Source of the DNA: Rhodothermales bacterium
GTDB taxonomy: Bacteria > Bacteroidota > Rhodothermia > Rhodothermales > JANQRZ01
Direction: 5' to 3'
Assembly: GCA_028284265.1 (NCBI GenBank)
Contig: JANQRZ010000006.1
Location: 207,610 to 271,609, forward strand
DNA length: 64,000 nt
The translations under genes and the position numbers were made by a program. Below are positions 12,701 to 37,058 of this stretch, piece by piece. The stretch's first letter is position 1. Each line of letters begins with the position of its first letter. A model generated the notes under the pieces. It worked only from the letters and a program-made list of their open reading frames with translations, was not told where the DNA came from and did no database searches.

Positions 12701-13207
12701 GTGGCAGGCTACAAAGGACACCTCGCGGGCTCGCTCGCCTTCTTCGGCGTCTACCTCGCCGGACTCGCGTTCATTTTCTCCGTCGATCAGGCGTACCAGC
12801 AGTTCAGCGAGCTGGAGCTGATCGGCGTGCCGGTGGTGCTGTGCGGGCTGTGCCTGATGTTCGGGCTGTGGCCGGACGTAGATACCAACTCAAAGGGGCA
12901 GAACCTCTTCTACTCGATCTTCTTCGTCCTCGACGTGATCCTCATCATCGGGCGGCGGTTCGAGTGGGCAGCCTACCTCGGGCTTTTTGCGATTCTGCCG
13001 GTTCTCGGCAAGCACCGGGGCTGGACGCACACCTACTGGGCGATGCTGCTGATCCCGTCGCCGCTGCTCATCTTGCCGTACCTCCTTTTCCCCGACCGCC
13101 CGTTCGCCGGGCTACCGTTCTACGGCGCGGCGGTCGTGGGGTACTTCTCGCACCTCTTCATGGACGGCCTCGTGATCTCGTTCCCGCATCGCCGCGCCCG
13201 GCGCTAA
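12701..13207 (+). CDS. membrane-bound metal-dependent hydrolase (YdjM/DUF457-like)
   Basis: Multi-TM 168-aa protein with HRGWTHT and GYFSHLFMDG motifs. Uses a GTG start. Confidence 0.6.
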   Translation: MAGYKGHLAGSLAFFGVYLAGLAFIFSVDQAYQQFSELELIGVPVVLCGLCLMFGLWPDVDTNSKGQNLFYSIFFVLDVILIIGRRFEWAAYLGLFAILPVLGKHRGWTHTYWAMLLIPSPLLILPYLLFPDRPFAGLPFYGAAVVGYFSHLFMDGLVISFPHRRARR

Positions 13208-13896
13208 ACCTCAGCGCGGGCAGCGGGGCGATCGGCCTCGACCCAGCCGTCGTGCAGTTCGATGGTGCGGCTGCCGTAGGCAGTCCAGCGCTCAGAGTGC
13301 GTCACCTGAATCACCGTCACGCCGTCGTCTTCATTGAGCGCCTTGAACGCATCCATCACCTCCTGACCCTGCGACGAGTGGAGGTTGCCCGTCGGCTCGT
13401 CGGCGAGGATGAGGCGGGGGCGGATGATGAGCGCGCGTGCCACACCGACAAGCTGCTGCTGCCCGCCGGAGAGTTGGTGCGGGAAGAGGTCGGCCTTCGC
13501 CACCATGCCGAAGCGGTCGAGCATCTCGGCGACGCGGGCCTGCCGCTCGGCCTTCGGCGTCTTGGTGTAGAGCAGTGGCGTCTCTAGGTTCTCATAGACC
13601 GTCAACTCGTCGATCAGGTGGTAGGCTTGGAAGACGAAACCGATGTGCTCGCGGTGGAGCGCTGTCCGCTTCTTCTCGCTGAGTTGGTGGACTGGCTCGC
13701 CCTCGAAGTGGTACGATCCCTCGCTCGGCTCCTCCAGCATACCGACGATGTTCATCAGGGTGGACTTGCCGGAGCCGGACGGCCCTTGCACGGTGACGAA
13801 CTCGCCCTCGCGCACGGACAGGTCCACGTTACGGAGGACGTAGGTTTTCTGCTGGCCTTGCTTGTAGAATTTGCTGATGCCGCGTAGCTCGATCAT
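13204..13896 (-). CDS. ABC transporter ATP-binding protein, MacB/LolD/FtsE type
   Basis: Walker [10 protein letters not shown], signature LSGGQQQ, Walker [10 protein letters not shown]-loop VTH. Last gene of the operon that starts at 20800. It is the only ATPase of this type in the window. Confidence 0.95.
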
Positions 13897-13941
13897 GTCG
13901 GTTCGGTAGTCGGAGTGGGTAGGAGCAGGAGTCGTTCGGGG

Positions 13942-14733
13942 TTAGCCGCGTTCGATGTTGACGCCGCCGTTGGTGGTGACGGCGCGGACCGGCGGCCCTC
14001 CGTCGCCGAGGGTGGTCTGTACGCGCCGCCCGACATCGCCCTGCACCATCACGGGGAAGTCGATCCGCATTCGGCCGTTGATGGTGCCGGTTTCGAGGTC
14101 GGCGGAGTAGCCGTCGGGGACGACCAGCTTGACGCCGCCGTTGGTGGTGCGGGCGTCGAGGCCATAGCCGTCCCAGCGGTCGCCGGTGAGCCGGACGCTG
14201 AGGCCGCCGTTGGTCGTCCGGCCTCGCACGTCGCCACCGAGGCCGTCGAGGCTGACGCCGCCGTTTTGCGTGTCGAAGCGGATCTGGCCGGTGACCCCGT
14301 CGATGCTGATGCCGCCGTTTCTTGCTTCGAGGTCGAGGTTAGAGGCGCGAGGCACCATCAGCCGGAAGCTGACGCCGACCCACGCATCGCGGCCCGACCT
14401 CGGCACGCGGCTCTCGATGGTCCCGTCCGTCTCGACCTCGGACTCCGCAACGAGGCGGCGCACCTCGTCGCGGTCCTCGCCGACGGCCTGCACGCGGGCG
14501 CGGACCAAGACTTCGTCGCGGTCCCATGCCTCGACCCGGATGCCGCCGTTCTTACCGGCATCCACCGAGAGCGTGCGGCGTGGCGCGAGGGTGAACTCGC
14601 GGACCTCGCAGGCTCGCTCCGCATCGTAATTGTTGTTGTCCTCGGTGCACCATGCGTCGTCGGCGATAGTGCGCTGCGCGGCTGCAGGGAGCGCGATGAG
14701 CGTGAGGAAAAGGAGCAGGCTGAAGAGTCGCAT
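13942..14733 (-). CDS. DUF4097-like beta-strand repeat (putative adhesin-fold) secreted protein
   Basis: Signal peptide MRLFSLLLFLTLIALPAAAQ. Reiterated NGG(I/V/L)(S/K/N)(I/L/V) strands (NGGIRVE, NGGISID, NGGVSLD, NGGLSVR, NGGVKLV, NGGVNIE). Confidence 0.75.
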   Translation of the reverse strand: MRLFSLLLFLTLIALPAAAQRTIADDAWCTEDNNNYDAERACEVREFTLAPRRTLSVDAGKNGGIRVEAWDRDEVLVRARVQAVGEDRDEVRRLVAESEVETDGTIESRVPRSGRDAWVGVSFRLMVPRASNLDLEARNGGISIDGVTGQIRFDTQNGGVSLDGLGGDVRGRTTNGGLSVRLTGDRWDGYGLDARTTNGGVKLVVPDGYSADLETGTINGRMRIDFPVMVQGDVGRRVQTTLGDGGPPVRAVTTNGGVNIERG

Positions 14734-14773
14734 GACGAGAGGAGCGTGAGTGGGAAGGTACAGGGATGGTGCG

Positions 14774-17206
14774 TCAGTCGTAGCGGAGAGATTTGACCGG
14801 ATCGGCGAGGGCAGCCCGGACGGCGCGGAGGCTGATGGTCAGCAGGGCGATGGCGAGCGCCAGCCCGCCCGCGAGCAGGAAGATGCCGGGGCTGATGTCG
14901 ATGCGGTAGGCGAACCCATCGAGCCAGCGGCGCAGCCCGACATAGGCCAGCGGGGCCGCGATCACGGCTGCGATGAACACGAGGCGGGCGAAGTCTTTCG
15001 AGAGCAGAAGCACAATGCTCCCGACGCTCGCGCCGAGCACCTTGCGGACCCCAATCTCGCGGGCGCGCTGATCAGCAATGAACGCCGCCAGTCCGAGTAG
15101 CCCGAGGCATGCGATGAACAGGGCCAGTCCCGACGCAATGCCGAAGAGCCGCCCCGTGCGGACCTCCGCTGTGTAGAAGTCGCCCAGCCGCTGGTCGAGG
15201 AAGTTGTACTCGAACGGGCGGTCCGGGTCGAACGCCTCGCCGATGGTCCGCAACGCGGCGATGGTGGCAGGCAGGTTCTCCGGGCTGACCCGCGCCGTGA
15301 AATAGTCGATGGATTGGACCGGGTTGTCCCACGCCCCGATCACGAGTGGACGGATTTGCTCGTGGAGCGACCGGAAGTGGAAGTCTTCGACCACGCCGAT
15401 CACGTTCAGTGTGAGGTCCGGTTCGGCCTCGCCGTCGTCCTGCGCGCCGGGAATCGTGAGGCGTTGCCCGATGGGGTTGGTCAGGCCGAGGGCGCGCACA
15501 GCGGTTTCGTTGAGGAAGACGGCGGCGGAGTCTGCCGGTCGGCTCGGGGAGAAGTTGCGGCCCGCTTGGAGCGTCACCTCGAAGGTCGATAGGAAGTCTT
15601 CGTCCGCCCCGATGAAGGCGAGCGTTCGGGGCGTCGCGTCAGCCGCGCCCTCGGGGATGGCCTCGATCTCGACGATGTCTTTCCAGTCGCCCGGCACCCG
15701 CGAGGTCGTCGAGACGCTCTGGACAGCGGGCACCGCGGCGATCTCAGCCTTGATGGCGCGGAACTGCCGCCGCACATCCCCGCTGTTGATATCGACCACG
15801 ACGAGGCCGTCGGCCTCGAACCCGAGCGGCTTCGACTGGATGTAGTCGAGCTGGCGCATCACCGTCAGCGTCGCCACGATGATGCCGATGGACAGCGCGA
15901 ACTGGCCCACGATCAAACTGCGCCGAAGCGCCGCGCCGCGCCGCTGGCCTTCCAGCCCCCGGAGCGCGAGCGCCGGACGAAACCGCGAGAGATAGAGCGC
16001 CGGGTAGCTCCCAGCCACAATGCCCACGATGAGGGCCAGCCCGACGAGCGCCGCGAGCAACCAGCCCGCCGAAACCGGCGAGAGCGTCAGCGATTTTCCT
16101 GCAAGTGTGTTGAACGCCGGGAGGACGAGCGCGACCAGCCCGATAGCCGCCGCGACGGATACGCCCGATAGCAGCACCGATTCGCTCAGGAACTGCCCTG
16201 CGAGTTGCCCCCGGTGTGCGCCGAGGGCCTTGCGTACCCCGACTTCCCGCGACCGCCGCATCGAGCGTGCCGTCGCGAGGTTCATGTAGTTGATCGAGGC
16301 GATGAGGAGGACGAAGAGCGCAATCGCCGAGAAGACGTAGAGGTAGGTGATCGGGCGCTTGTCGCGGTTGAACACATCCTCGATCTCGCCCGAGCCGAAG
16401 TGGATGTCGGCGAGGGGCTGGAGGGTGATTGCCTCCGTCGTGGCCTCCTCGGTCTGGTGCCGGTCCAGCATCCCCGCAAGTCGGGCCTCGACTACCGGAG
16501 CCGACTGGGCCTCGTCGAGCGCGACGTAGGTAAGGAATGAGCGGGAGTTGGGCGTCCAGTTGGCCGCGTAGTCGTTCCACCACCGGGTCTCGGTGGCAAA
16601 CGTGGCTGCCGAGAACAGCATGGAGAACGTGAGGTGCGAGTTGGCGGGCGGGTCGCGCAGCACTGCCGTCACGGTCATCGCTCCGAAGCCTTCCACCTCG
16701 ACCGTTTCGCCGATTGGGTCTTCGTCGCCAAAATATTGCCGTGCCGACGACTCGGTGAGGACGATGCTGTGGGGCGTGTCGAGCGCGGCGGTCGTGCCCT
16801 GCATCAACTCGAATCCATCGAACACATCGAAGAAACTCGGCTCGGCCACGAGGTAGTCGCCCACGTAGGCGCGCTGCTCACCGCGCTCGACGGTGAAGCG
16901 CCACAGGCTGATGAGCCGCGTCGCGGCGGCAACCTCGGGCACCTCATCCACGAGCGCCACGCTCACAGGCCCCGCCGTCGCGGCTATGAGTTGGTCGCCG
17001 AGATCCGGCGTGGCGCGGGTCTCGACCACGCGGAAGGTCCGGTCCGACGCCTCGTGGAAGCGGTCGAAGCGAAGCTCGTCGAGGACGTACAGCCCGATCA
17101 GCAGGCAACACGCCACACCGACGGTGAGGCCCGCGACGTTGATGAACGCATAGCCTTGGTCCCGGCGGAGCGCACGGAGGGCCGTTATGAGATAGTTCTT
17201 CAGCAT
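14774..17206 (-). CDS. duplicated FtsX/MacB-type ABC permease (paralogue 1)
   Basis: 810 aa. N-terminus MLKNYLITALRALRRDQGYAFINVAGLTVGVACC. Two FtsX modules (INYMNLATARSMRRSREVGVRKALGA...; GLLGLAAFIADQRAREIGVRKVLGAS...). C-terminus ADPVKSLRYD. Confidence 0.9.
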   Translation of the reverse strand: MLKNYLITALRALRRDQGYAFINVAGLTVGVACCLLIGLYVLDELRFDRFHEASDRTFRVVETRATPDLGDQLIAATAGPVSVALVDEVPEVAAATRLISLWRFTVERGEQRAYVGDYLVAEPSFFDVFDGFELMQGTTAALDTPHSIVLTESSARQYFGDEDPIGETVEVEGFGAMTVTAVLRDPPANSHLTFSMLFSAATFATETRWWNDYAANWTPNSRSFLTYVALDEAQSAPVVEARLAGMLDRHQTEEATTEAITLQPLADIHFGSGEIEDVFNRDKRPITYLYVFSAIALFVLLIASINYMNLATARSMRRSREVGVRKALGAHRGQLAGQFLSESVLLSGVSVAAAIGLVALVLPAFNTLAGKSLTLSPVSAGWLLAALVGLALIVGIVAGSYPALYLSRFRPALALRGLEGQRRGAALRRSLIVGQFALSIGIIVATLTVMRQLDYIQSKPLGFEADGLVVVDINSGDVRRQFRAIKAEIAAVPAVQSVSTTSRVPGDWKDIVEIEAIPEGAADATPRTLAFIGADEDFLSTFEVTLQAGRNFSPSRPADSAAVFLNETAVRALGLTNPIGQRLTIPGAQDDGEAEPDLTLNVIGVVEDFHFRSLHEQIRPLVIGAWDNPVQSIDYFTARVSPENLPATIAALRTIGEAFDPDRPFEYNFLDQRLGDFYTAEVRTGRLFGIASGLALFIACLGLLGLAAFIADQRAREIGVRKVLGASVGSIVLLLSKDFARLVFIAAVIAAPLAYVGLRRWLDGFAYRIDISPGIFLLAGGLALAIALLTISLRAVRAALADPVKSLRYD

Positions 17207-17227
17207 GGCGATGGCGTGTGGTGTGGC

Positions 17228-17500
17228 TTATTCGGGGACCGCGTCCTCCTGTTGCGCTCGCAGCCGGAACATCACCGGCACGCGCTCTGCCGTCGGCGTG
17301 CCGATCTGGACGAGCAGCCACTCCTCGCCGTGGCTCGCGATGAACTCGCGCAGCGCCTCGACCCGCGACGGGTTGTCTTCCGGCCACTCCAGCGTTTCGA
17401 CGCGGTACTGCACGCGCTGCTTCTGGCCGTCGATCACGACGTCTACGTCGATCGTGCGGGTCTGGTCAATCGGGGGAATGGGGACGCAAATCTGACTCAT
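17228..17500 (-). CDS. hypothetical 90-aa protein (no signal peptide)
   Basis: Compact ORF lying 21 nt upstream of the permease and 30 nt downstream of the repeat-protein gene. Composition looks coding. No family recognised. Confidence 0.5.
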   Translation of the reverse strand: MSQICVPIPPIDQTRTIDVDVVIDGQKQRVQYRVETLEWPEDNPSRVEALREFIASHGEEWLLVQIGTPTAERVPVMFRLRAQQEDAVPE

Positions 17501-17530
17501 CGGGATCAGGCGTTTGGTGAGCGGTAAGGG

Positions 17531-19351
17531 TTAGCGGGTATCGGCGCGGTAGACGGTAATGCCCCAGTAGAGCGGGTCATCAGGCGGCGAGGCGTTCCAG
17601 TCGCCGAAGGCGTGCGAGCCGTCGGTGCGGTAGCGGAGTTCGTAGTCGCCCGCAGGGAGGGTGAGGGTAACGTTCGCCATGCGGTTCTTCTTCGCGCCGC
17701 CCGCCCGCTCCGTCGTCCGGTAGGTCATCTCCCAGACAGCCCGCCCGGTCTCGGCATCCTCGATCCAGCCGTAGTCGTACATGTGGTCACCGCTGCCTTC
17801 GCCGAGGGCGTAGATGCGGACCTCGGTAGGCCGGTCGAGGGTAAAGCGCTGTCGCCCGCGGTCGCTGTCGCGGACGCGCGTGATCTGGGCGATGACATTC
17901 GCCTCGGTGCGATCCCTCTCGGCGAATGTTTGAATGCGATCCGCGCCCTCTGCGGTGAGGAGCGAGAGACCCCAGTACTCGCCCCCGACGGGTGGGGAGG
18001 CGTTCCAGTCGCGGTACGCATGGGAGTCGTCGGTGACGTAGTAGGCGATATAGTCGCCCGCGTCGAGGGTCACGATGCCGTCGAAGACGCGGTTTTTCTG
18101 GGCACCGCCCGCGTGCTCGGTCCGACCGTCGCGCATGTCCCAGACGCGCTCGCGGGTGTCGGCGTCCACAATCCAGCCATAGTCGTGGAAATCAGTGGCG
18201 TGGTCCGTGGCTTCGCCGAGGGCATAGACCCGCACATTGGTTCGGCGGTCGAGGGTGAAGCCACGGGCCTCGAAGTCATCGTCGCGGGCACGGGTGAGCG
18301 AGAGGAAGGTCTCCGCCGGCGGGACGTGCTCGTAGTCGAACAACTCAACGTTCGCCCGGTCGCTGGTGCGAAGCGTCAGGCCCCAGAAGACCGGATCGAA
18401 GGCGGGCACGGCGTTCCACTCGTTGGATGCGTGCGAGTCGTCGGTGACGACGAACGCGGCGTAGCGACCGGCAGGAAGCGAGAGGGTCTCGCGGACGACA
18501 CGGTTCTTGTCCGAGCCCCCCGCCCACTCGGACGAGTAACCGTCGAAGGTCCAGACGGTCTCGCGGGTGTCGGCGTTGAGAATCCAGCCGTAGTCGTAGG
18601 CTTCATCGCGCCTCGCCTCGCCGATGGCATAGAGGTCGATCTCGGTCGGTCGGTTGAGGACGAAGCCCTGCTGCTCGTAGGTTTCGTCCTCCAGCCCGAC
18701 GAGGGTCACAAAGGCGTTCGCAGTGAAGGCATCGTAGGCCTCTTGAAGGGCATCGCGGTCGCCGGTGCGTCCGTCGCCGCGCACGACGAGGCGGAAGTCG
18801 CGGAAGGCTTCGTTCTCGACGAACTCGCCCCCGTAGCCCTGGCGCTGCCACGTCCCTCGGTCGCCGTCGAAGAAGCTCGAAATCGTGTGGCTGATGGTTC
18901 CGATGAGACCTCGGTGGTCGTCATCGTCATCATCACTCCAGTAATACGACATGCCGGGGTAGGAGGCGTAGTAGGCCTCGTAGGTGCCCGCCGGAAGCTG
19001 AACGGTGCCCTCGAAGGTGTGGACGCCGCGCCGCTCGTCGGTGTCCGCCTCGCGGAGCGTCCAGACCACCTCGCGGGTGCGGGCGTCGAGGATCCACGCT
19101 TCGCCGGGCCAGTAGTCGGGGCGCTCCCAGCGCTTGTCCCAGTCCCAGCCGTCCCATCGGTCCCGGCCCCGGTCCTTCGCCCCGAGGGCTTCGACACGGA
19201 CGGTCTGTGGTGAGGCGAGCGTGAACGACGCCATCGCAAGCTCGCGGGGCGAGAAGTCGCGGAGGTCGACGAGGGTTCGGCTCTGGGCCGAGGCAGGACT
19301 GCTCAGGCCGATGAGGGCGAGCAGCAGGATAGAAGCGAGGAGGCGAATCAT
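17531..19351 (-). CDS. secreted protein with four tandem copies of an uncharacterised ~120-aa module
   Basis: Signal peptide MIRLLASILLLALIGLSSPASAQ. Repeats lie at roughly aa 40-145 (degenerate), 213-330, 348-468 and 486-603. They share F.L.R.T.V.(I/V)YA(L/I)GE...(Y/H)DYGWI.DA.T(R/G)..VW.M....AGG..KNR....L.AG.Y...Y.TD.SHA...WN..P....WG. Confidence 0.8.
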   Translation of the reverse strand: MIRLLASILLLALIGLSSPASAQSRTLVDLRDFSPRELAMASFTLASPQTVRVEALGAKDRGRDRWDGWDWDKRWERPDYWPGEAWILDARTREVVWTLREADTDERRGVHTFEGTVQLPAGTYEAYYASYPGMSYYWSDDDDDDHRGLIGTISHTISSFFDGDRGTWQRQGYGGEFVENEAFRDFRLVVRGDGRTGDRDALQEAYDAFTANAFVTLVGLEDETYEQQGFVLNRPTEIDLYAIGEARRDEAYDYGWILNADTRETVWTFDGYSSEWAGGSDKNRVVRETLSLPAGRYAAFVVTDDSHASNEWNAVPAFDPVFWGLTLRTSDRANVELFDYEHVPPAETFLSLTRARDDDFEARGFTLDRRTNVRVYALGEATDHATDFHDYGWIVDADTRERVWDMRDGRTEHAGGAQKNRVFDGIVTLDAGDYIAYYVTDDSHAYRDWNASPPVGGEYWGLSLLTAEGADRIQTFAERDRTEANVIAQITRVRDSDRGRQRFTLDRPTEVRIYALGEGSGDHMYDYGWIEDAETGRAVWEMTYRTTERAGGAKKNRMANVTLTLPAGDYELRYRTDGSHAFGDWNASPPDDPLYWGITVYRADTR

Positions 19352-19357
19352 GGCGGT

Positions 19358-20800
19358 TTAGTTGTCTTCTGCTAGGGTGCCCATGATGGCCGGGCCGATC
19401 TCTTCGGCGATGGGCGGGTCGAAGTTGGCGAGTACGAGCACCGTGTAGCCCGACTCGAAATCTGATTCCCATGTCGAGTTGAGGCCCGGTGCGCCTCCGG
19501 CCCGACCGAAGGCAGCATCGGGTTGCCTTTCGGGATCGTAGTCGGCTAGGAAGAGGCGTGTCATCGCCGGGCTAAGAAGTCGGTGGTCAAGGAGCGCTCG
19601 CTCGAAGCGGAGTAGGTCTTCGGCGGTGGCATAGCCGCCGCCTGCGGGTGTGCCGCGAGGGCCGAGACCATCCGGCAGTGGCTCGGCATAGCCGGGTTCG
19701 CTTCGCTGGGTGTAAGGCACCGCGAGGTTCGGCGCATCGCGCCAGTACGAGTCCGTGTTCTCCATGCCAGCAGGTGTATAGACATGCTCCCGCACGAAGT
19801 CGTAGTACGACTCGCCGGATACGCTTTCGACGATCCCACCGAGCACCTCGTAGCCGACGTTGCTGTACTGCCACTGCGTGCCCGGCTCGAAGTCCAGTGG
19901 GATGTCACGTAGGAACGCGAGGTAGTCGTTGATCTCACGAAGCTCCGTTCGCTGCGCGAGGTAGACGGGATGGTCCCAGTAGTGTCCCCAGCCGGAGCGG
20001 TGCTGGAGCAGGTGCCGCGTCGTTACTCGGTCTGCGACCTCATCGGGGAAGCCGTCGAGGTAGGTGCCGATGGGCGCATCGAGATCGAGCTTACCCATCT
20101 CGGCGAGCTTGAGGGTGGCAACGCCGGTGATGAGCTTGTTGAGCGAGCCAATGTTGAAGCGCGTGTCGAGGGTGTTGCGCTGCCCCTCGGCTTTGTTCGC
20201 CCAGCCGTAGGCCTCGCTAAAGATCACCTCCCCGTGCCGCGCTACAAGCACGACGCCGGAGAAAGCCTCATCGGTCTCGGCCTGTTCTAGGTAGGCGTTC
20301 ACCTCGTCGAGGCTACTGAACTGAATGCCCTCGTTCTCCCCGGCAGCTTCTACTTGGAATCCACGGATCGGGTGAGGCGGAGCCTCATCAACCATGAGTG
20401 TCACTTGGAAGGCCGGACCGCCTGCGGGGTTACGAACGACAAAAGACCCTTCGTATGGACTGCGCAGCTCCACGTCCATGATCTCGGCATCGCCCAAATC
20501 GTTGTGGAGCATTCTCAACATCCTGACGATCTGGTCCTCCGATACCCGAGTCTTCAGGTCGGAACTGATGGCTGTCGCGGCGAAGGCACGGTGCGTTTCT
20601 GGGTCGGGGCTACAGACCGTAGCGAAAAAGGCATTGGCCTGCGCCCCGATGGCATCAGGCGGGAGCTGGCGCATCCGGTCGCAGTCATCGCGGAGTGCTG
20701 CGAGCGACTGGTCATCAGTGTAGACCGTGAAAGACAGGCTGCCGAGGGTGACAAGCAGCACGAAGAGGTAAGGCATGGTGCGAGGAGATGGCGGGAGCAT
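19358..20800 (-). CDS. beta-lactamase-fold serine hydrolase (class C/DD-peptidase-like) with an extra N-terminal domain
   Basis: SxxK motif (FNIGSLNKLITG) and YxN motif (QYSNVGYEVLG). The start is trimmed to the Met at 20800 (alternative 20776) because the ORF-track extension to 20944 runs through the promoter/UAS module. Confidence 0.8.
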   Translation of the reverse strand: MLPPSPRTMPYLFVLLVTLGSLSFTVYTDDQSLAALRDDCDRMRQLPPDAIGAQANAFFATVCSPDPETHRAFAATAISSDLKTRVSEDQIVRMLRMLHNDLGDAEIMDVELRSPYEGSFVVRNPAGGPAFQVTLMVDEAPPHPIRGFQVEAAGENEGIQFSSLDEVNAYLEQAETDEAFSGVVLVARHGEVIFSEAYGWANKAEGQRNTLDTRFNIGSLNKLITGVATLKLAEMGKLDLDAPIGTYLDGFPDEVADRVTTRHLLQHRSGWGHYWDHPVYLAQRTELREINDYLAFLRDIPLDFEPGTQWQYSNVGYEVLGGIVESVSGESYYDFVREHVYTPAGMENTDSYWRDAPNLAVPYTQRSEPGYAEPLPDGLGPRGTPAGGGYATAEDLLRFERALLDHRLLSPAMTRLFLADYDPERQPDAAFGRAGGAPGLNSTWESDFESGYTVLVLANFDPPIAEEIGPAIMGTLAEDN

Positions 20801-20822: not shown

Positions 20823-20838
20823 CGCAAGCCATATGCCG
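20823..20838 (-). promoter_or_regulatory. sigma54-type -24/-12 promoter (copy 5)
   Basis: Minus strand reads CGGCATATGGCTTGCG, with the GG-N10-GC spacing of TGGCAC-N5-TTGC. Lies 23 nt upstream of the ATG at 20800. Confidence 0.65.
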
Positions 20839-20891: not shown

Positions 20892-20928
20892 TGTGCGTTT
20901 GCGCCCACCCGATGTGCGCAGGCGCGCA
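20892..20928 (-). promoter_or_regulatory. tandem palindromic upstream sites (putative enhancer/UAS, copy 5)
   Basis: Site A is tgtgcgtttgcgccca (20892..20907) and site B is tgtgcgcaggcgcgca (20913..20928). Their centres are 21 bp apart. The site A centre is 63 bp from the -24 GG. Confidence 0.55.
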
Positions 20929-20948: not shown

Positions 20949-21851
20949 TCAGGGCAGGTTCACCAAGCGGTCCAGATCGATCTGGTAGATGTCTGAGTTG
21001 TTGCCCGCGAGGTGGGCATAGAAGAGGTACCGACCATCGGGGGAGAACGCAGGCGTCCACTCGTAGTCTGCCGTGTTGATTGTGTCTCCCAGATTGGCGA
21101 CGGATGACCACGCCCCGTCCTCATTGTAGACCACGAACAGGTCGCCTCGTCCCTGCCCCCCTTCGCGCTCCGAGTAGAAGATGATGAAGCGCTCCTCCGG
21201 GTCCACGATGGCCTCGCCATCGGTGGCCTCACTGTTGAAGGGCACTATCACTGGTTCGGCATAGTGTCCCTCCACCAACGCCGCCCGGTGGATATCGACG
21301 CCGCCCGGTCCCCCGGCTCGGTTGGAGTGGAAGTAGAGGTCGCCCTTCGCCGTCGTGTGGGGATGGCTGTCGATGCCGTCGCCGTTGAGGGGTGCGGGTA
21401 GGTGCTGGGGCGTGCCCCAGCCGTCGTCCGTTCGCTCGACAAACCAGAGGTCGTTGTGCGAGCGTTCGCCTGTGTCATCGACAGGCCGCTTCGAGGCGAA
21501 GTAGAGCCGGTCGCCGTCGAACGACGGATACTCGTCGCTGTACTGACCGGAGAACGGAAGCACCGTCGGTTCTTGCCACGCGCCCTCTGCGAAGTGGGAG
21601 ACGTAGAGGGCAGGTGTGTCTCGCCACGATGCGCGCCGGGTGAAATAGAACGTCCGTCCGTCCGGCGAGAACGTCGGGCCGTACTCGATGGCGTCTGTGC
21701 TGATGACGCCGGGTGCGAAGAGCAGCGGCTCCTCCAACGTTTCGGCGGTCTGGTACGGATGAGGCTGTGCTACGGCGTTGCAGCACACCAAAAACGCGAC
21801 GAGCGTGGCAATCCCAAGAGGCTGCGAAATCGCACGGTGGAAGGCGGGCAT
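20949..21851 (-). CDS. TolB-like/PD40 beta-propeller repeat secreted protein
   Basis: Signal peptide plus repeated F(S/T)PDG(R)..(Y)F motifs (TFSPDGRTFYF, PSFDGDRLYFAS, AFSPDGRYLFYA). Confidence 0.7.
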   Translation of the reverse strand: MPAFHRAISQPLGIATLVAFLVCCNAVAQPHPYQTAETLEEPLLFAPGVISTDAIEYGPTFSPDGRTFYFTRRASWRDTPALYVSHFAEGAWQEPTVLPFSGQYSDEYPSFDGDRLYFASKRPVDDTGERSHNDLWFVERTDDGWGTPQHLPAPLNGDGIDSHPHTTAKGDLYFHSNRAGGPGGVDIHRAALVEGHYAEPVIVPFNSEATDGEAIVDPEERFIIFYSEREGGQGRGDLFVVYNEDGAWSSVANLGDTINTADYEWTPAFSPDGRYLFYAHLAGNNSDIYQIDLDRLVNLP

Positions 21852-21880
21852 AGGGATAGATGTTTGAAAGCAAAGATGGG

Positions 21881-29607: not shown

Positions 29608-29623
29608 CGCAAGCGATATGCCA
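29608..29623 (-). promoter_or_regulatory. sigma54-type -24/-12 promoter (copy 4)
   Basis: Minus strand reads TGGCATATCGCTTGCG. Lies 34 nt upstream of the ATG at 29574. Confidence 0.7.
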
Positions 29624-29676: not shown

Positions 29677-29713
29677 TGCGCGCTGCCGCACACTCGGTGG
29701 GCGCTAGCGCGCA
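29677..29713 (-). promoter_or_regulatory. tandem palindromic upstream sites (copy 4)
   Basis: Site A is tgcgcgctgccgcaca (29677..29692) and site B is tgggcgctagcgcgca (29698..29713). Centres are 21 bp apart. Site A is 63 bp from the -24 GG. The module ends 9 nt from the stop of the preceding permease gene. Confidence 0.55.
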
Positions 29714-29722: not shown

Positions 29723-32101
29723 CTATTCGTAGCGAAGCGCTTTGACCGGATCGGTGGTGGCAGCACGGAGGGCTTGGGTGCTCACGGTCACGAGCGCGAT
29801 GGCGAGGGCCGCGAGTCCGGCGACAACGAAGACACCGGGGCCGAGGTCCACGCGGTAGGCGAACCCGTCGAGCCAGCGGCTCATCGCCAGCCATGCCAGC
29901 GGCGTCGCCACGACGAAGCCTATGAGCACGAGCCGGACGAAGTCCTTCGATAGCAGGGCGATCACACTCCCCACACTCGCGCCGAGCACCTTGCGGACGC
30001 CGATCTCCTTCGTGCGCTGCTCGGCGGCAAAGGCCGCGAGGCCGAACAGCCCGAGGCACGCGATCAGCACCGCCAGCGCGGCGAAGAGGCGAGCCAGCGC
30101 ACTCGTGCGCGCTTCGGCCCGGTAGAGATGGTTGAAGGTCTCGTCGAAGAAGGAGTACGTGAACGGATGCGCCGGGTCGAACGTCGCCCACGTCGCTTCG
30201 AGGGCGGCGAGCGTTTCCTCAACTTCGCCCGGTCGGATGCGCACCGAGACCGTCAACAGCCACCCCGGCGGCGGGATGAACAGCATGATCGGCTCGACGG
30301 TCTCGCGGAGGGACCGGTAGTGGAAGTCTTTCACGACGCCCACCACTGCCCCAACTGGTCGGTCTATCGCGGGCATCGCAATGGTCTCCGAAAACGGATC
30401 GTCCCAGCCAAGCGCACGGACGGCGGTCTCGCTCACGAGGTAGGTGCTGCTGTCCGTGGCGAAGTCTTCAGAGAACCCACGCCCGGCGACGATCTCCATC
30501 TCAAACGTGTCCAGAAAGTCGGGGTCGATGACGAGCATCCGCATCTCCGGTACCTCGTCGTCTGGGACGCCGGAGGGGGTGAAGGGAATGCCCCAGTCGC
30601 CGCCTCCGGGGAGGTTGCCCGAGGCCGTCACGTCCACCACGCCGGGATGCTGAAGCAAGGCTTCCTTGAGCGTCCCGAGGCGCTCCGTGAGGGCTTGGTC
30701 CCGCACGGGGATGGTGACGATTTGCTCGGTCTGAAACCCGAGGTCGGCGGACTCGATGAACCGGACCTGCTGCTGGACCACGCCGACCGCGACGAGCAGG
30801 AACACCGACACGGTGAACTGGACCACGACGAGGCTTCGCCGCAGCCACGCCCCACCAGTCGCACTGGCGGCTCCTTTGAGCACCCGCGCCGGACGGAACC
30901 GCGAGAGGACGAACGCTGGATAGCTCCCCGCCAGCACGCCGATGCCGAATCCAGCCACGAGCAGCGCGAGCCAGAACACAGGCTCCTGAATCGGGAGGGT
31001 AAGCTCGACGCCCGCGAGTTGGTTGAACGAGGGGAGGAGCGTCTGCGTCAGGAGCAGCGCGAGGCCGAGGCTGAGTACGATGAGCAGAAGCGCCTCGCCG
31101 ATGAACTGCCGTGCGAGGGCCGTGCGCGGGGCACCGATCGCCTTGCGGACGCCCACCTCCGTCGCCCGCCGCGCCGAGCGGGCCGTCGTCAGGTTGACGA
31201 AATTGACGACCGCCATCAGCAGGACGAGCAGCGCGAGGACAGCAAACGCGGAGACATACCCGAGGTCGCCTGTCGGCCCGATCTCGCGGTGGAGGTCAGA
31301 GTGGAGGTAGATCTCTGTCAGCGGCTGGAGGTGCGGAGTGATAGCGGAGAGTCCGCCCTCGGCTGGGTTTTGCGCTTGGAGTGCTTCGGTTATCACGGCC
31401 TCGCTCTCCGCGAGGTCGGCGGCATCGTCGAGCAGGAGGTAGGTATAGAATTGCGTCCGATTCCATAGCGTCGGCATCTCGGACGTATCCGACGCGAGCG
31501 AGATGAGATAGGAAAACGAGAAGTGGGAGGTAGTCGGTGGATCTTTCAGGATGCCCGTCACCCGGTACGTCTCGTCGTTGTTGAGCACCAGCGACTGCCC
31601 GACGGGATCGGCCTCGCCGAAGTAGCGAGCGGCGAGCGTTTCGGTGAGGACCATCGTATTCGGCTCCGTGAGCGCCGTCGTGGCATCACCCTGTACGAAC
31701 TCGAAGCTGAACACATCGAAGACATTCCCGTCGGCGAAGAGGCCACCTGCCTCATACGCCTGCACGTCGCCTCGCTCGAAAAGCTGGCTATTGAGCAGCC
31801 GGAACCGCGTCATCGTCTCCACCTGCGGGACCGCGTTGAGGACGGTTGGCCCCCACGGGCCGGGCACTTTCGCAAGGCCGGGGTCCCCGCCTCCATAACT
31901 TGCCTCCTCGTCGAAGATGGCGAGCCGGACGATGCGGTCCTTGTTTGCATGGTGCTGGTCGTAGCTCAGTTCGCCATAGACATAGAGCAGGATCGCCAAG
32001 CAGCACGCCATCCCCACGGCCAGCCCGGTTACGTTGAGGAGCGCGTAGCCTTTCTGGCGACGCAGATTGCGAAGGGCAACGACGAGGTAGTTCTTCAGCA
32101 T
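29723..32101 (-). CDS. duplicated FtsX/MacB-type ABC permease (paralogue 5)
   Basis: 792 aa. N-terminus MLKNYLVVALRNLRRQKGYALLNVTGLAVGMACC, two FtsX modules, C-terminus TDPVKALRYE. Confidence 0.9.
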   Translation of the reverse strand: MLKNYLVVALRNLRRQKGYALLNVTGLAVGMACCLAILLYVYGELSYDQHHANKDRIVRLAIFDEEASYGGGDPGLAKVPGPWGPTVLNAVPQVETMTRFRLLNSQLFERGDVQAYEAGGLFADGNVFDVFSFEFVQGDATTALTEPNTMVLTETLAARYFGEADPVGQSLVLNNDETYRVTGILKDPPTTSHFSFSYLISLASDTSEMPTLWNRTQFYTYLLLDDAADLAESEAVITEALQAQNPAEGGLSAITPHLQPLTEIYLHSDLHREIGPTGDLGYVSAFAVLALLVLLMAVVNFVNLTTARSARRATEVGVRKAIGAPRTALARQFIGEALLLIVLSLGLALLLTQTLLPSFNQLAGVELTLPIQEPVFWLALLVAGFGIGVLAGSYPAFVLSRFRPARVLKGAASATGGAWLRRSLVVVQFTVSVFLLVAVGVVQQQVRFIESADLGFQTEQIVTIPVRDQALTERLGTLKEALLQHPGVVDVTASGNLPGGGDWGIPFTPSGVPDDEVPEMRMLVIDPDFLDTFEMEIVAGRGFSEDFATDSSTYLVSETAVRALGWDDPFSETIAMPAIDRPVGAVVGVVKDFHYRSLRETVEPIMLFIPPPGWLLTVSVRIRPGEVEETLAALEATWATFDPAHPFTYSFFDETFNHLYRAEARTSALARLFAALAVLIACLGLFGLAAFAAEQRTKEIGVRKVLGASVGSVIALLSKDFVRLVLIGFVVATPLAWLAMSRWLDGFAYRVDLGPGVFVVAGLAALAIALVTVSTQALRAATTDPVKALRYE

Positions 32102-32108
32102 GGGGTTC

Positions 32109-34538
32109 TCATTCGTAGCGAAGCGCTTTGACTGGATCAGTCGTAGCCGTGCGGAGGGCCTGGATACTTACGGTTGCTAGGGCAACGAGGAGAGCGAGCG
32201 CTCCGGCCAGCAGGAAGACGCGGGGGCCGAGGTCGATGCGAGCTGCGAAGCTGTCGAGCCACTGCCGCATCGCGAGGTAGCCCACGGGCGCGGCGATAGC
32301 GATGGCGATGCCGACCAGCACGACGAAGTCTTTGGAGAGCAGCAGCACGAGTTGCGCCGCCGAGGCTCCCAGCACCTTGCGGATGCCGACCTCTTTCGTC
32401 CGCCGGGCCGCTGCGAGGGTTGCCACGCCGAACAAACCGAGGCCCGCGATGAGCACAGCGAAGAGAGCTCCGTAGCCGATGATCTGGCTCCACCGCTCCT
32501 CGCTCTGGTAGAGTTGGTCCATGTCAGCATCAAGGAAGCTGTACTGGAACGGCACGTCGTGGGTGAGACTTGCCCACGTAGCGCGCAGTTGGTCCAACGT
32601 TGCCGGTATCGCATCGGGCTGGATGCGGACCAGCACGTTCAGCACCGGGTCGCTCGACGTGGTGTAGAGCACGGCGGGTGCAACCTCCGCCTGCAAGGCC
32701 TCGAAGTGGAAGTCCCGGACCACCCCGACAATCGTCGGGTTTTGCAGACCGCCCCACTCGACCGGAAGCTGCCGCCCGACCGGGTTGTCCCAGCCGAAGT
32801 CGCGCGCGAGGGCTTCATTGACGAGGATGCTGCTCGTCGAATCGCTGGCGCGTTGCGGGTCGAGGTCGCGGCCTTGGATCAGGTCCATGCGGAGGGTTTC
32901 GAGGTAGTTGTCCGCGATACGCAGCGACACGACTTGCTTCAGCTCGCCCTCGTACCGGAAGCCACGCCGCCAGAGGCCGCGCCCGAAGGCGAAGTTGGAG
33001 CCGCTCACGCGGTCGATGGTCGGCTCGGCCTCGGCGAGCGAGCGGTAGCGGTCGAGCACGGTGTCGCTGTCCAGCCCGCGCGTCGGGATGACGACGACCT
33101 GCTCGCCCTGATAGCCGAGGTTGTGCGTCCGCAGGTGGCGAAGCTGCTGCGCCATCACGAGCGTGCTCACGATCAGGAATACCGAGAGGGTGAATTGCGC
33201 CGTCACCAGTCCATTCGCCAGCAGGCTGCGTCCGCCGACCTGCGCCCGGTTGCGCAGCGAGGCTACCGGCTGGAGGCGGGCCAACACGAGCGCCGGGTAG
33301 CCGCCCGCGATGAGGCTTGTCATGGCGAGCAAGACGAGCAGCGCGCCCCCTGCCCACAGCCCTTCAACTGCTCCGAAGTGTAGCGTCTTCCCGGCCAACT
33401 CATTGAAGACCGGCAGGAAAAGTGCAGCCAAGCCGATGCCGATGCCGAGGGCTAGCGCGCTCAGGAGCACGGCCTCGCCCCAGAACTGCGCGGCGAGTTG
33501 GCGGGGCTGCGCGCCCATCGCCTTCCGCACGCCGACCTCTTTCGCTCGCCGGGTCGAGCGCCCGAGAGCGAGAAGGGTGAAGTTGATGCAGGCGATCAGC
33601 AACACGGCCAGCGCGATGGCACCGAGGATGTAGGCGTAGCGCGGATCACTCGGTGGCGTGATGCCGGGGGGGACCTCCGGGTTGAGATGGATGTCGGTCA
33701 TCGGCTGGAGGCGGTAGACTGCAGGCGGGCCGTCGGTGGTCAGGACGCCGTTAGCGCGCATCTGGTCGAATATTGAGCCGAGGTGCGTTTCCATGAACTG
33801 AGGCATCTGCGTCTGCACGTTCGCAGCATCCGCTCCCTCGCGCAACATGACGTAGGTGATCGAGCGCGTTGCCCCCCAGCTATCCACGGCACGCTGCATG
33901 GCGCCGAGCCGCCGGACGAAGAGGTCGTAGGGAATCAAGACCTCGAACTGGACGCTGGAGCCTGTGGGTGGCGGAGCCGCTACGCCCGTCACGAGGAGGT
34001 CCACATAGCCCTCGCCGAGGCGCAGTTCGATCCGCTGGCCCAAAGCATCCGCCTCGCCGAAATAGCGGCGGGCCACCGACTCGGTGAGCACGACCGAGTA
34101 CGGGCCGGCGAGCGCGGTCTCCGGCCTGCCGCTCAGGAGTGGAAAGGAGAACACGTCGAAGAAAGCGGGGTCGGCAGCGAGGATGCCATCCTGCTCGACC
34201 ATCGTCTCACCGTGCCGAACGGTGAGAGCCGCATTGGGAAAGTCGAGCCTAACAAAGGCTTCGACTTCGGGGAACGTAGCCTGCATCGCAGGGCCTGCTG
34301 GAATCGGCATCGACAGTTCCCGGTCGAAGGGCGAGCTTGGCTCTACGACGTCGCGATAGAGCCGGTGGATGCGGTCAGCGTTGGTATGGAACTGGTCGTA
34401 GCTCAACTCGTCGCGCACGAACAGGAGCACGAGGAGGCAGAAGGCCAGCCCGATGGCGAGGCTGAACACGTTGATGGCCCCGAAGAGCTTCTGGCGTCCG
34501 AGTTGACGGAGCGCGGTGGAGAGGTAGTGCTTCAGCAT
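32109..34538 (-). CDS. duplicated FtsX/MacB-type ABC permease (paralogue 6)
   Basis: Start trimmed to MLKHYLSTALRQLGRQKLFG (ATG at 34538), which lies 2 nt after the stop of paralogue 7. The ORF-track extension to 34712 overlaps the upstream gene. Confidence 0.9.
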   Translation of the reverse strand: MLKHYLSTALRQLGRQKLFGAINVFSLAIGLAFCLLVLLFVRDELSYDQFHTNADRIHRLYRDVVEPSSPFDRELSMPIPAGPAMQATFPEVEAFVRLDFPNAALTVRHGETMVEQDGILAADPAFFDVFSFPLLSGRPETALAGPYSVVLTESVARRYFGEADALGQRIELRLGEGYVDLLVTGVAAPPPTGSSVQFEVLIPYDLFVRRLGAMQRAVDSWGATRSITYVMLREGADAANVQTQMPQFMETHLGSIFDQMRANGVLTTDGPPAVYRLQPMTDIHLNPEVPPGITPPSDPRYAYILGAIALAVLLIACINFTLLALGRSTRRAKEVGVRKAMGAQPRQLAAQFWGEAVLLSALALGIGIGLAALFLPVFNELAGKTLHFGAVEGLWAGGALLVLLAMTSLIAGGYPALVLARLQPVASLRNRAQVGGRSLLANGLVTAQFTLSVFLIVSTLVMAQQLRHLRTHNLGYQGEQVVVIPTRGLDSDTVLDRYRSLAEAEPTIDRVSGSNFAFGRGLWRRGFRYEGELKQVVSLRIADNYLETLRMDLIQGRDLDPQRASDSTSSILVNEALARDFGWDNPVGRQLPVEWGGLQNPTIVGVVRDFHFEALQAEVAPAVLYTTSSDPVLNVLVRIQPDAIPATLDQLRATWASLTHDVPFQYSFLDADMDQLYQSEERWSQIIGYGALFAVLIAGLGLFGVATLAAARRTKEVGIRKVLGASAAQLVLLLSKDFVVLVGIAIAIAAPVGYLAMRQWLDSFAARIDLGPRVFLLAGALALLVALATVSIQALRTATTDPVKALRYE

Positions 34539-34540
34539 GG

Positions 34541-36910
34541 CTATTCGTAGCGGAGAGCTTTGACGGGATCGGTGGTGGCGGCACGAAGGGCCTGCGTGCT
34601 CACCGTCAGCAGGGCGATGGCGAAGAGGAGCACGCCCGCGATGAGGAACGGCTCCGGCCCGAGGCCGATGCGGTAGGCGAACCCGTCGAGCCACTGGCTG
34701 AGTCCAAACCACACGAGTGGCACCGCGATCACGAAGGCGACCGCGACGAGTGCGACGAAATCTTTGGCGAGCAGCAGCACGAGGTTCGGCACCGTTGCGC
34801 CGAGCACCTTCCGTACGCCGACTTCCTTCGTCCGGCGCTCCGCCGTGAATGAGGCGAGGCCGAACAGCCCAAGGCAGGCGACGAAGATGGCGAGGAAGGC
34901 GAAGATGCTCACGATCCGCCCGAGCTGCTCCTCGTTGCGGTAGAGTCGGTCGTACACGTCATCGAGGAAGCGGTACGAGAATGGGCGGTGTGCAGCGAAC
35001 TGGCCCCACACGGCTTCGAGATGGTCCATGCCGGCCCGCGTGTCGCCGGGCGCGAGGCGGACGGCGAGATGGAACACGTTGCCGGGGTCGTACCAGATGG
35101 CGAGTGGCTCGATTTGCTCGTGGAGCGAGCGGAAGTGGAAGTCCTTCGCCACACCGATCACCTCGCCCCAGCGCGAGTCCACCGCCACGCGCCGCCCGAT
35201 GGCCTCTGTCGGCGTCCAGCCGAGCCGTTCGACCGTCGTCTCATTGATGACGAACTGGTAGTTGGCTGAGTCCGGTTCGGGCGGTGTCGCGGGGAAGCCA
35301 CGTCCAGCCACGAGCGTTAACCCTAGCCCATCCGTCACGTTCGGATCAGAAGGGAGACCCTTGATAAGAAACCCCTCATCTTCGCCCATGCCTTCCGTGC
35401 GGAAGCCGGAAGTCCAGCCTAGCTGGCCGGGAACCTGGTTAATACCAGTCGTGGCAACTATCGCTGGACTCTGGGTGATGGCATTCTGCATCGCGGTAAC
35501 CTGTTCCTGCAGGATCGAGTCGGAGAGGGGGAGCACCACGAGGTGCTCCTTGTCAAACCCGAGTTGCTGTGCATTCAGGTACCTAAGCTGGCTCATCACC
35601 ACGAGCGTCCCGGCGATGAGGAACGCTGAGATACCGAACTGGAGCACGACGAGGCTCTTCCGCAGCCACGATGAGCCGGAGGATGTGGTACCCCGTCCGC
35701 GAAGCACGCGCGCCGGTTGGAAGCCGGAGAGGTAGAGCGCTGGGTAGCTTCCTGCCACCACACTCACGACGAGGAAGATGCTGACGATCAGCGCGACGAG
35801 TCCCGGCTCGGCGAGCGTCCCAAAGGTCAGCGCCTTGCCGCTCAGTTCATTAAACCACGGCAGCCCGATCCCGACGAGCGCCACAGCCAGTCCCAACCCG
35901 GCTAGTGTGAGCAGCGCCGACTCACTGAAAAACTGCCCGACGAGCTGCCCGCGGAACGCCCCGAGTGACTTCCGCAGGCCGACCTCCTTCGCCCGCTGCC
36001 CGGCGCGTGCCGTGGCGAGGTTCATGTAGTTGATGCACGCGATCAGGAGAATCAGCAGCGCTACCGTCGTGAAGCCGATCACATAGGTCATATCGCCTGT
36101 CGCGTCGATGTCGTAGGCGATGTCGCTGGCGAGGTGGATGTCTGGTAGTGGCTGGAGTGTGAGGATGCGCGAGTGCTCGCCTGCTGACCTCCGTTCCGCA
36201 ATGAACGCATCGATCTTCGCCTGCAATGGGGCGGCGGCGGTGGCACTCGGCAGGCGAATGAAGGTGAAAAAGTTGGCTGAGCCCCACTGCTCGTTGTTGG
36301 CCCAGTGCTCCCGCGAGGCAAATGAGGCGAGGAAGTCGAAGCGAAAGTGCGAGTTTGTGGGCACGTCCGCCATCACGCCCGTCACCTCGAACTCTTGGTC
36401 GTTGTTTCGGATGATGGTCTGCCCGACGGGATCGGTGTCGCCGAAGAACTTCTCCGCCGTTGATTCGGTCAGCACGACGGTGTTGGGTCGGGTCAGCGCT
36501 GTCTGTGCGTTGCCTGCCAGCAACTCGAACCCGTCGAAGACCTCGAAGAACGTCGAGTCGGCGAAGTAGAAGCGGTTATCGTCGAAGATGCGCCCGCCTG
36601 CCCGAACGACTCCGCCATGTGCCTCGATCCGCGTGGTTGTCTCCACCTCCGGAAACTCGCGCCTCAGGAGCGGGGCCACGATGTTCGGACTGATAGCGAT
36701 CGTTGCATCGAGTTGGGGAACGACCATGTTGACGCGGTAGACGGCGTCGGCGTCCTCGTGGAAGCGGTCGTAGCTCAGTTCATCGCGGACGAAAAGCAGC
36801 AGAAAGAGGCAGCACGCGACGCCGACAGCGAGGCCGGTGACGTTGAGCGCGGCGTAGCCGGGCTGACGGCGAAGGGTGCGGAGGGCGATGCGGAGATAGT
36901 TGAGCAGCAT
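34541..36910 (-). CDS. duplicated FtsX/MacB-type ABC permease (paralogue 7)
   Basis: Start trimmed to MLLNYLRIALRTLRRQPGYAALNVTGLAVGVACC (ATG at 36910). The ORF-track extension to 37063 runs through the promoter/UAS. Confidence 0.9.
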   Translation of the reverse strand: MLLNYLRIALRTLRRQPGYAALNVTGLAVGVACCLFLLLFVRDELSYDRFHEDADAVYRVNMVVPQLDATIAISPNIVAPLLRREFPEVETTTRIEAHGGVVRAGGRIFDDNRFYFADSTFFEVFDGFELLAGNAQTALTRPNTVVLTESTAEKFFGDTDPVGQTIIRNNDQEFEVTGVMADVPTNSHFRFDFLASFASREHWANNEQWGSANFFTFIRLPSATAAAPLQAKIDAFIAERRSAGEHSRILTLQPLPDIHLASDIAYDIDATGDMTYVIGFTTVALLILLIACINYMNLATARAGQRAKEVGLRKSLGAFRGQLVGQFFSESALLTLAGLGLAVALVGIGLPWFNELSGKALTFGTLAEPGLVALIVSIFLVVSVVAGSYPALYLSGFQPARVLRGRGTTSSGSSWLRKSLVVLQFGISAFLIAGTLVVMSQLRYLNAQQLGFDKEHLVVLPLSDSILQEQVTAMQNAITQSPAIVATTGINQVPGQLGWTSGFRTEGMGEDEGFLIKGLPSDPNVTDGLGLTLVAGRGFPATPPEPDSANYQFVINETTVERLGWTPTEAIGRRVAVDSRWGEVIGVAKDFHFRSLHEQIEPLAIWYDPGNVFHLAVRLAPGDTRAGMDHLEAVWGQFAAHRPFSYRFLDDVYDRLYRNEEQLGRIVSIFAFLAIFVACLGLFGLASFTAERRTKEVGVRKVLGATVPNLVLLLAKDFVALVAVAFVIAVPLVWFGLSQWLDGFAYRIGLGPEPFLIAGVLLFAIALLTVSTQALRAATTDPVKALRYE

Positions 36911-36941
36911 GAAGGCAGGAGGATGGGAGTGACTCCCATCG

Positions 36942-36957
36942 CGCAAGCCATATGCCA
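36942..36957 (-). promoter_or_regulatory. sigma54-type -24/-12 promoter (copy 1)
   Basis: Minus strand reads TGGCATATGGCTTGCG. Lies 32 nt upstream of the ATG at 36910. Confidence 0.7.
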
Positions 36958-37021
36958 CCTCACGCCCGTCTAATGCGATGCGCGTTGGGCGGCTTGAGAG
37001 CCTGCCGCACGCTTCAGGCAC

Positions 37022-37058
37022 TGTGCGCCAGCGCACAGCCTGTGTGCGCCTACGCGCA
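37022..37058 (-). promoter_or_regulatory. tandem palindromic upstream sites (copy 1)
   Basis: Site A tgtgcgccagcgcaca (37022..37037) is a perfect 7+7 palindrome. Site B is tgtgcgcctacgcgca (37043..37058). Centres are 21 bp apart. Site A is 74 bp from the -24 GG. The module ends 1 nt from the LysR stop codon. Confidence 0.6.

Follow-up and report, generated by a model that had tools for sequence, protein, structure and literature searches.

A 64,000-nucleotide stretch from a Rhodothermales bacterium (contig JANQRZ010000006.1 of assembly GCA_028284265.1, forward-strand positions 207,610 to 271,609; hereafter the window, with positions counted from its first letter) carries two arrays of genes for duplicated MacB/FtsX permeases, and repeated, phased and conserved sigma-54 cassettes head each block of these genes. 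Each cassette combines an enhancer made of two palindromes with a -24/-12 promoter. An earlier interpretation made from the letters alone (the sequence-only reading) had described three such units chained head to tail in the first array (cluster I). Its three cassettes are there, on the minus strand, and the junctions read as it described; the chaining is real but is not restricted to cluster I, since two more cassettes of the same design, also on the minus strand, head a second permease array (cluster II). We consider it probable that cluster I comprises three transcription units, and the window five, of one sigma-54 regulon that would be driven by the two-component system found in relatives. 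The layout is a known regulatory arrangement, and we regard it as a new example rather than as a new mechanism. What appears to be new is the enhancer motif, the two-component system assigned to it, the link with arrays of ADOP-like permeases and the regular abutment of enhancers on stop codons.

Repeated enhancer-promoter cassettes head the permease blocks

The promoter core GGCATATNGCTTG has five exact occurrences in the window (20825, 29610, 36944, 54846 and 62189), every one of them on the minus strand, and none in 100 dinucleotide-preserving shuffles. The double palindrome TGNGCG-N4-CGCNCA, N5, TGNGCG-N4-CGCNCA is likewise found exactly five times (the enhancers of Table 1) and never in the shuffles. 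Its distal and proximal palindromes, of 16 bp each with the consensus TGTGCGC-NN-GCGCACA, lie 21 bp apart centre to centre, and the spacer between enhancer and promoter measures 54 nt in units 2 and 3 and 65-66 nt in units 1, 4 and 5. At the five sites the promoter element, (T/C)GGCATAT(G/C)GCTTG(C/T), sets the -24 GG and the -12 GC in the TGGCAC-N5-TTGC register, and every promoter points toward a gene start, the first ATG coming 24-35 nt past the -12 element. When the five cassettes are aligned, conservation is confined to the palindromes and the promoter, the spacers being unrelated.

The junctions are compact. In cluster I the enhancers begin 1, 9 and 20 nt past the stop of the same-strand gene before them, which reproduces the distances first read, and in cluster II 7 and 12 nt past it; each of the five junctions spans 148-162 nt between that stop codon and the following ATG (149 nt between the LysR gene and permease 7, taking the start of the latter at 36910). 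Within the units the genes are 2-45 nt apart, and not 2-40 nt as the sequence-only reading had it, the gap of 45 nt separating the DUF4097 gene from the ATPase gene. Pfam and NCBIfam concur with its gene labels, and the sequence of the 606-aa protein does show four repeats.

A pattern scan of a collection holding one genome per species recovered true cassettes only in the Rhodothermales lineage (assemblies of Rubrivirga, Rubricoccaceae, Salinibacteraceae and Rhodothermaceae); the other matches lack a second palindrome or a credible promoter, and chance hits made up most of the total. A 15-kb Logan contig of run SRR20820731 carries the LysR gene of the window. When the window and its relatives are taken together (19 cassettes), the spacer length is strictly bimodal: it is either 53-54 or 64-66 nt, two classes that differ by one turn of the helix, and conservation is again limited to the palindromes and the promoter. 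Such a face-of-helix constraint is expected of an enhancer. The closest relative is Rhodothermaceae bacterium SS_bin_10, whose locus L021 carries an orthologue of the unit 3 junction, namely a PD40 gene, 20 nt, the enhancer, the promoter and the beta-lactamase-fold gene, with ~80% protein identity. Chaining also recurs in relatives: the enhancer lies 9-27 nt past a same-strand stop codon in L003, L021, L039, L048, L056, L058 and L061 and, by our reading, ~5 nt past one in L054.

Some minor features of the cassettes and of the scan may be recorded here. In many permease-type cassettes a short T-run (CGTTT(C/T)G-like) occupies a fairly fixed position ~19-22 nt upstream of the GGCA element (20856-20859 and 54877-54880 in the window); it is not seen in the Rubrivirga-type cassettes of regulator loci (L008, L009, L018), and it may be a site for DNA bending or for an architectural protein between enhancer and promoter. 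The leaders that follow the promoters (36911-36935 and ~20801-20815, minus strand) are strongly pyrimidine- and C-rich and show no Shine-Dalgarno-like purine run. In the rumen Clostridiales assembly RUG11909, a ~190-nt repeat that matches by chance is present in seven contigs (L002, L007, L012, L020, L024, L026 and L042); this element contains TGTGCGCTTGCGCACA and a GC-rich hairpin and is unrelated to the sigma-54 regulon.

The predicted activator and the cargo of the proposed regulon

In nine loci from relatives (L008, L009, L010, L018, L055, L060, L061, L062 and L064) a cassette stands divergently beside a gene for an NtrC-family response regulator, with a histidine kinase gene next to it where the sequence extends. 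These regulator-linked cassettes head genes for a membrane-fusion protein, an ATPase and ADOP-like permeases, often accompanied by a toastrack protein. L008 belongs to a cultured relative, Rubrivirga sp. IMCC45206 (NZ_CP177357). L060 and L021 were both taken from one metagenome-assembled genome, so that a genome near that of the window has both a regulator-linked cassette and an orthologue of a window cassette. L064 belongs to a lower-GC genome with the same palindromes and a regulator only 61% identical; a nearby Por_Secre_tail gene suggests that it is from Bacteroidota. The response regulator is composed of a receiver, a sigma-54 AAA+ domain and a Fis-type helix-turn-helix (HTH) domain; it matches the NtrC1 and ZraR structures (E 1e-82 to 1e-90) and no named NCBIfam equivalog is matched above its cut-off. 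At the N-terminus of the kinases, a loop of ~6 residues connects two membrane helices, which implies that the kinases possess no periplasmic sensor domain. The best NCBIfam names for the fusion protein, ATPase and permease are DarC, DarD and DarB, all with scores below the cut-offs. We propose with fair confidence that a single NtrC-family two-component system would activate all the cassettes together with the core operon of fusion protein, ATPase and permease. A regulator homologue from Calditrichaeota (L063) was set aside because it has neither pump nor motif, and regulator homology alone thus does not predict the regulon.

The window encodes 12 ADOP-like permeases of ~800 aa each, with the duplicated MacB/FtsX architecture. 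Pfam finds two MacB_PCD and two FtsX stretches in each of the three full-length permeases scanned, and the best NCBIfam match of five permeases scanned is the ADOP family TIGR03434, at 293-337 bits against a curated cut-off of 622.3; this match is full-length in four of the five and covers only residues 241-810 in permease 1. Because the 12 permeases are mutually 37-47% identical and form a star-like tree, they are old paralogues, and the cassettes have persisted since they diverged. For 11 of the 12 there is no ABC ATPase gene nearby; permease 1 lies one gene from the unit 3 ATPase, which is closest to DarD, MacB and LolD, and the arrays of relatives do contain an ATPase. The window holds ATPase and permeases with no adaptor, where relatives carry all three under the same cassette; an outer-membrane channel partner was not noticed in the window or in the fetched loci, although no dedicated test for one was made. 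The VOC-fold and PD40 propeller proteins of unit 2 are both secreted, and the toastrack/DUF4097 protein of unit 3 is LiaG/LiaX-like, by weak matches.

Two of the small proteins recur elsewhere. The toastrack/DUF4097 protein (13942-14733) is found again in permease arrays, including two-component-linked ones (L060 3175-3990 and L061 6782-7597). The 90-aa protein (17228-17500, minus strand) has no family match, and its homologues stand directly beside a MacB/DarD-type ATPase gene in three other lineages (L054 191-430, 85% identity; L056 677-931, 81%; L064 171-425, 43%); it may be an accessory factor of the ATPase.

In the mechanism that we propose, each unit would start at its own -24/-12 promoter, (T/C)GGCA-N4-GCTTG, and would be activated from the palindrome pair 54 or 65-66 nt upstream, two spacings that differ by one helical turn. 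The activator would be an NtrC-family response regulator which, with its partner histidine kinase, is encoded outside the window. The regulon would supply many alternative ADOP-like permeases, a few ATPases and secreted accessory proteins. With less confidence, we suggest that it could be an inducible response serving envelope defence or export, and, equally guardedly, that the kinase might sense through the membrane, or by way of the transporter or of the toastrack proteins. The units would be packed head to tail without a canonical terminator, and the internal promoters would make each block independent of upstream transcription. If all units share one activator and each has its own promoter, insulation would be of little value and compaction would be tolerated. 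Some read-through between units is likely, and would be incidental and unneeded; one 24-kb transcript would not be required because every block has a promoter of its own.

Several points weigh against this assignment. No enhancer-binding regulator, histidine kinase, membrane-fusion protein or rpoN gene is present in the window, and the putative activator is assigned by comparison with relatives alone, the two-component genes lying elsewhere. The genome of the window is itself absent from the one-per-species collection that was scanned. Finally, the permeases score below the ADOP cut-off and would be better described as ADOP-like than as members of that family.

Transcript boundaries and alternative readings

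A simple terminator scan found no canonical hairpin with a U-tract at any of the five junctions, in agreement with what the sequence-only reading had said of the spaces between units. Terminator-like matches across the region are fewer than in shuffles, and the longest T run within any junction is 2-4 nt and is not positioned after a hairpin. The companion claim that there is no room for terminators was overstated: the U-tract is indeed missing, but the enhancer itself, once in RNA, forms a hairpin just behind the stop codon, with an energy of -18 to -26 kcal/mol. The double palindrome is a long inverted repeat, and the sense-RNA folds of the five enhancers reach -26.1, -24.1, -18.1, -22.5 and -23.1 kcal/mol, four of them within the top 0.1-0.75% of 44-nt windows on the same strand. 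In the 19 cassettes compared, the folding energy of the double site always lies between -17 and -33 kcal/mol. These hairpins were scanned with a folding script, as the inverted-repeat tool misses imperfect hairpins.

The units could then be insulated operons that yield separate mRNAs, the double palindrome acting both as a DNA enhancer and as an RNA hairpin that, with no U-tract, would terminate or stabilise the transcript of the unit before it; in a variant of this explanation, the bound activator or a closed sigma-54 holoenzyme complex acts as a roadblock. Taken jointly, we consider these possibilities worth weighing, if on the unlikely side. The strength of the hairpins and their recurrence in every cassette speak for insulation, as does the fact that this organism does put long hairpins behind housekeeping genes, the one after the citrate synthase gene being of comparable stability (-24.2 kcal/mol). 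However, the hairpins at 2606-2636 and 6466-6497 (minus strand), which follow the genes for the succinate dehydrogenase iron-sulfur subunit (2905-3615) and for citrate synthase (6516-7661), are 14-bp GC-rich stems, each with 3-4 consecutive T a short distance beyond it. Both are probably true terminators and illustrate the form that terminators take in this organism, so that the lack of a hairpin plus U-tract at the junctions is informative. Moreover, any adjacent pair of similar palindromes necessarily forms such a hairpin, and the junctions show no C-over-G bias (C-rich, G-poor) suggestive of Rho loading. By our own count the central dinucleotides are complementary in just five of the 19 cassettes, and nothing there points to selection for RNA pairing; as a covariation test this count proved uninformative and was abandoned. 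The junction hairpin is probably a by-product of enhancer symmetry, and it might serve as the 3' end or as a stabiliser of the upstream message.

The sequence-only reading had taken cluster I as effectively one 24-kb transcript, in which internal cassettes boost expression toward the distal ATPase gene. We consider this unlikely. It draws support from the failure to find canonical terminators, from junctions as tight as 148-162 nt and from the precedent of the Pseudomonas putida flagellar cluster, where long operons contain internal FleQ/sigma-54 promoters and read-through of the junctions has been demonstrated (bioRxiv 10.1101/2021.08.29.457346). Yet every block in cluster I has a complete cassette, none depends on upstream transcription, and strong hairpins lie at the junctions. 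The ATPase gene does come last in unit 3, as had been stressed, but this placement is not conserved as part of the design: in L054 and L056 the 90-aa gene and the ATPase gene come straight after the cassette. This fluid gene order in relatives argues for autonomous modules and not for a designed 24-kb transcript ending at the ATPase.

Intermediate between separate and fused transcripts is the idea that the 37-bp double palindrome is two-in-one, a DNA enhancer for the downstream unit and an RNA 3' hairpin that ends or protects the upstream message, activator occupancy deciding whether transcripts are fused or separate. We are decidedly doubtful of it; if true, it would amount to conditional operon fusion across arrays of interchangeable permeases that share a few ATPases.

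That the palindromes are bound by a different regulator, either the adjacent LysR protein or another enhancer-binding protein, seems to us very unlikely. The LysR gene does end 1 nt before the unit 1 enhancer and the window lacks the predicted two-component system, but four of the five cassettes have no LysR gene beside them, no homologue of LysR was found beside the cassettes in the relatives compared, and nine independent loci place an NtrC-family regulator beside the same motif. Sigma-54 promoters require an AAA+ activator, and LysR is not one. LysR was rejected as the regulator on these grounds, being neither conserved near other cassettes nor an activator of the AAA+ type. Lastly, although the ~110-nt elements are five copies of similar length with similar ends, it is hardly credible that they are non-regulatory repeats, of the kind of repetitive extragenic palindromes (REP) or miniature inverted-repeat transposable elements (MITE), or leftovers of a recent cassette duplication: the former is ruled out by conservation restricted to the functional motifs (the palindromes and the -24/-12 element, with unrelated spacers), the latter by the star-like tree of permease paralogues merely 37-47% identical, and the elements are always oriented as the downstream gene, are spaced in helical phase and keep their motif in distant relatives beside a gene for an enhancer-binding protein.

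Other RNA structures were looked for in the window. Conserved structure in the enhancer-promoter spacer found no support, the z scores ranging inconsistently from -3.2 to +1.3, with +0.2, +1.3 and +0.4 for the spacers of cluster I. Those of cluster II (62210-62245 and ~54865-54915, minus strand) fold better than shuffles (z = -2.4 and -3.2), and their folds include a 9-bp hairpin, CCTACCCCT...AGGGGTAGG. Rfam and tRNA scans of the window returned nothing. At 13189-13232 the last 4 nt of the ATPase gene are shared with those of a convergent YdjM-like gene, and a hairpin of -27 kcal/mol straddles both stop codons.

Comparison with known systems and features of the window

The arrangement proposed here, one regulon with a sigma-54 promoter for each block, has partial counterparts in well-studied bacteria. 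Like the Pseudomonas putida flagellar cluster, the window shows long same-strand strings of genes with repeated sigma-54 promoters that a single (here predicted) enhancer-binding protein would activate. The cargo there consists of flagellar genes and the activator is FleQ, whereas here permease paralogues would be controlled by a predicted phosphorylated response regulator; the cassettes of the window are also far more uniform and abut stop codons. The Klebsiella nif cluster, of ~24 kb, has a similarly compact multi-operon layout, in which adjacent operons each have a NifA enhancer and a sigma-54 promoter. However, NifA does not belong to the response regulators and recognises TGT-N10-ACA, the nif operons are transcribed in both directions and the function is unrelated. 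With ZraSR/zraP and NtrBC-type systems, the relatives share the receiver, AAA+ and Fis-HTH regulator and a divergent target promoter with tandem dyad sites; they differ in a regulator that falls under the named equivalog cut-offs, in a kinase without periplasmic domain and in a regulon made of ABC exporter parts.

Regarding the cargo, DarBCD/MacAB-type pumps offer the same separate ATPase, duplicated MacB_PCD/FtsX permease of ~780-800 aa and periplasmic adaptor, but here the scores are below cut-off, there are no peptide biosynthesis genes and many permease paralogues accompany each ATPase. The ADOP family (TIGR03434) is approached by the mostly full-length match, the duplicated domain pair, the large paralogous arrays and the mostly missing adjacent ATPase gene. 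In contrast with that family, the scores are 293-337 bits against 622, the host belongs to Rhodothermales and not to Acidobacteria, and the arrays are tied to ATPases, an adaptor and a regulator. In the BceRS-BceAB systems of Firmicutes, a kinase without extracellular sensor domain stands beside the MacB-superfamily ABC transporter that it controls. The sensor-domain-less kinase next to a MacB-superfamily transporter would be a likeness to the present system, although here the activator is of the sigma-54 type and not OmpR-type and both permease architecture and phylum differ. That sensing proceeds through the transporter here is speculation.

To our knowledge, no function, partner or regulator has been established for the ADOP-type orphan permeases, which form large and abundant families of paralogues, and we found almost nothing on them in the literature. 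The window and its relatives connect ADOP-like arrays to one enhancer motif, a sigma-54 two-component system, particular ATPases and a membrane-fusion protein. A connection between sigma-54 promoters and FtsX-type permeases (COG0577) has been drawn for several classes by an in-silico survey of 2025 (PMC12316311). The chained layout also lends itself, as a clean example from nature, to the question of whether sigma-54 units under common control require any insulation.

Table 1. Cassettes, genes and flanking regulator of the five units in the window
Feature	Coordinates	Strand	Details
LysR-family regulator gene	37060..37962	-	directly upstream of unit 1
Unit 1 enhancer	37022..37058	-	distal palindrome 37043-37058, proximal 37022-37037; 1 nt past LysR stop
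Unit 1 sigma-54 promoter TGGCATATGGCTTGC	36943..36957	-	65 nt downstream of proximal palindrome
Unit 1 genes	29723..36910	-	permease 7 34541-36910; permease 6 32109-34538; permease 5 29723-32101
Unit 2 enhancer, two palindromes	29677..29713	-	9 nt past permease 5 stop
Unit 2 sigma-54 promoter TGGCATATCGCTTGC	29609..29623	-	54 nt downstream of proximal palindrome
Unit 2 permeases	within 20949..29574	-	permease 4 27184-29574; permease 3 24739-27174; permease 2 22360-24726
Unit 2 other genes		-	secreted VOC/glyoxalase-fold protein 21881-22354; PD40/TolB-like propeller protein 20949-21851
Unit 3 enhancer, two palindromes	20892..20928	-	20 nt past PD40 gene stop
Unit 3 sigma-54 promoter CGGCATATGGCTTGC	20824..20838	-	54 nt downstream of proximal palindrome
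Unit 3 genes, first part	within 13204..20800	-	beta-lactamase-fold protein 19358-20800; four-repeat 606-aa secreted protein 17531-19351; 90-aa protein 17228-17500
Unit 3 genes, second part		-	permease 1 14774-17206; DUF4097/toastrack protein 13942-14733; MacB/DarD-type ABC ATPase 13204-13896
Unit 5 enhancer (cluster II)	62267..62303	-	12 nt past stop of permease gene 62316-63926+, which runs off the window end
Unit 5 sigma-54 promoter TGGCATATGGCTTGT	62188..62202	-	
Unit 5 genes	54969..62153	-	permease 11 59772-62153; permease 10 57348-59762; permease 9 54969-57338
Unit 4 enhancer (cluster II)	54925..54961	-	7 nt past permease 9 stop
Unit 4 sigma-54 promoter CGGCATATCGCTTGC	54845..54859	-	
Unit 4 gene	52426..54813	-	permease 8

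Downstream of permease 8 come ~270 nt of non-coding DNA with short T-runs and then a peptidase S41 gene. At the other end of the window, the plus-strand open reading frame at 278-2533 (751 aa) has no Pfam match, and it is uncertain whether it is a real gene. The ATPase of unit 3, which the sequence-only reading had called the single one, is the only one in the permease arrays of the window; a second ABC ATPase gene does exist at 45596-46504 (minus strand), but it is part of an unrelated ABC-2 system. It is overlapped by the gene of a 1192-aa protein (42021-45599, minus strand) in which an ABC-2 membrane domain and a peptidase M1 domain are joined, and this system stands apart from the permease arrays.

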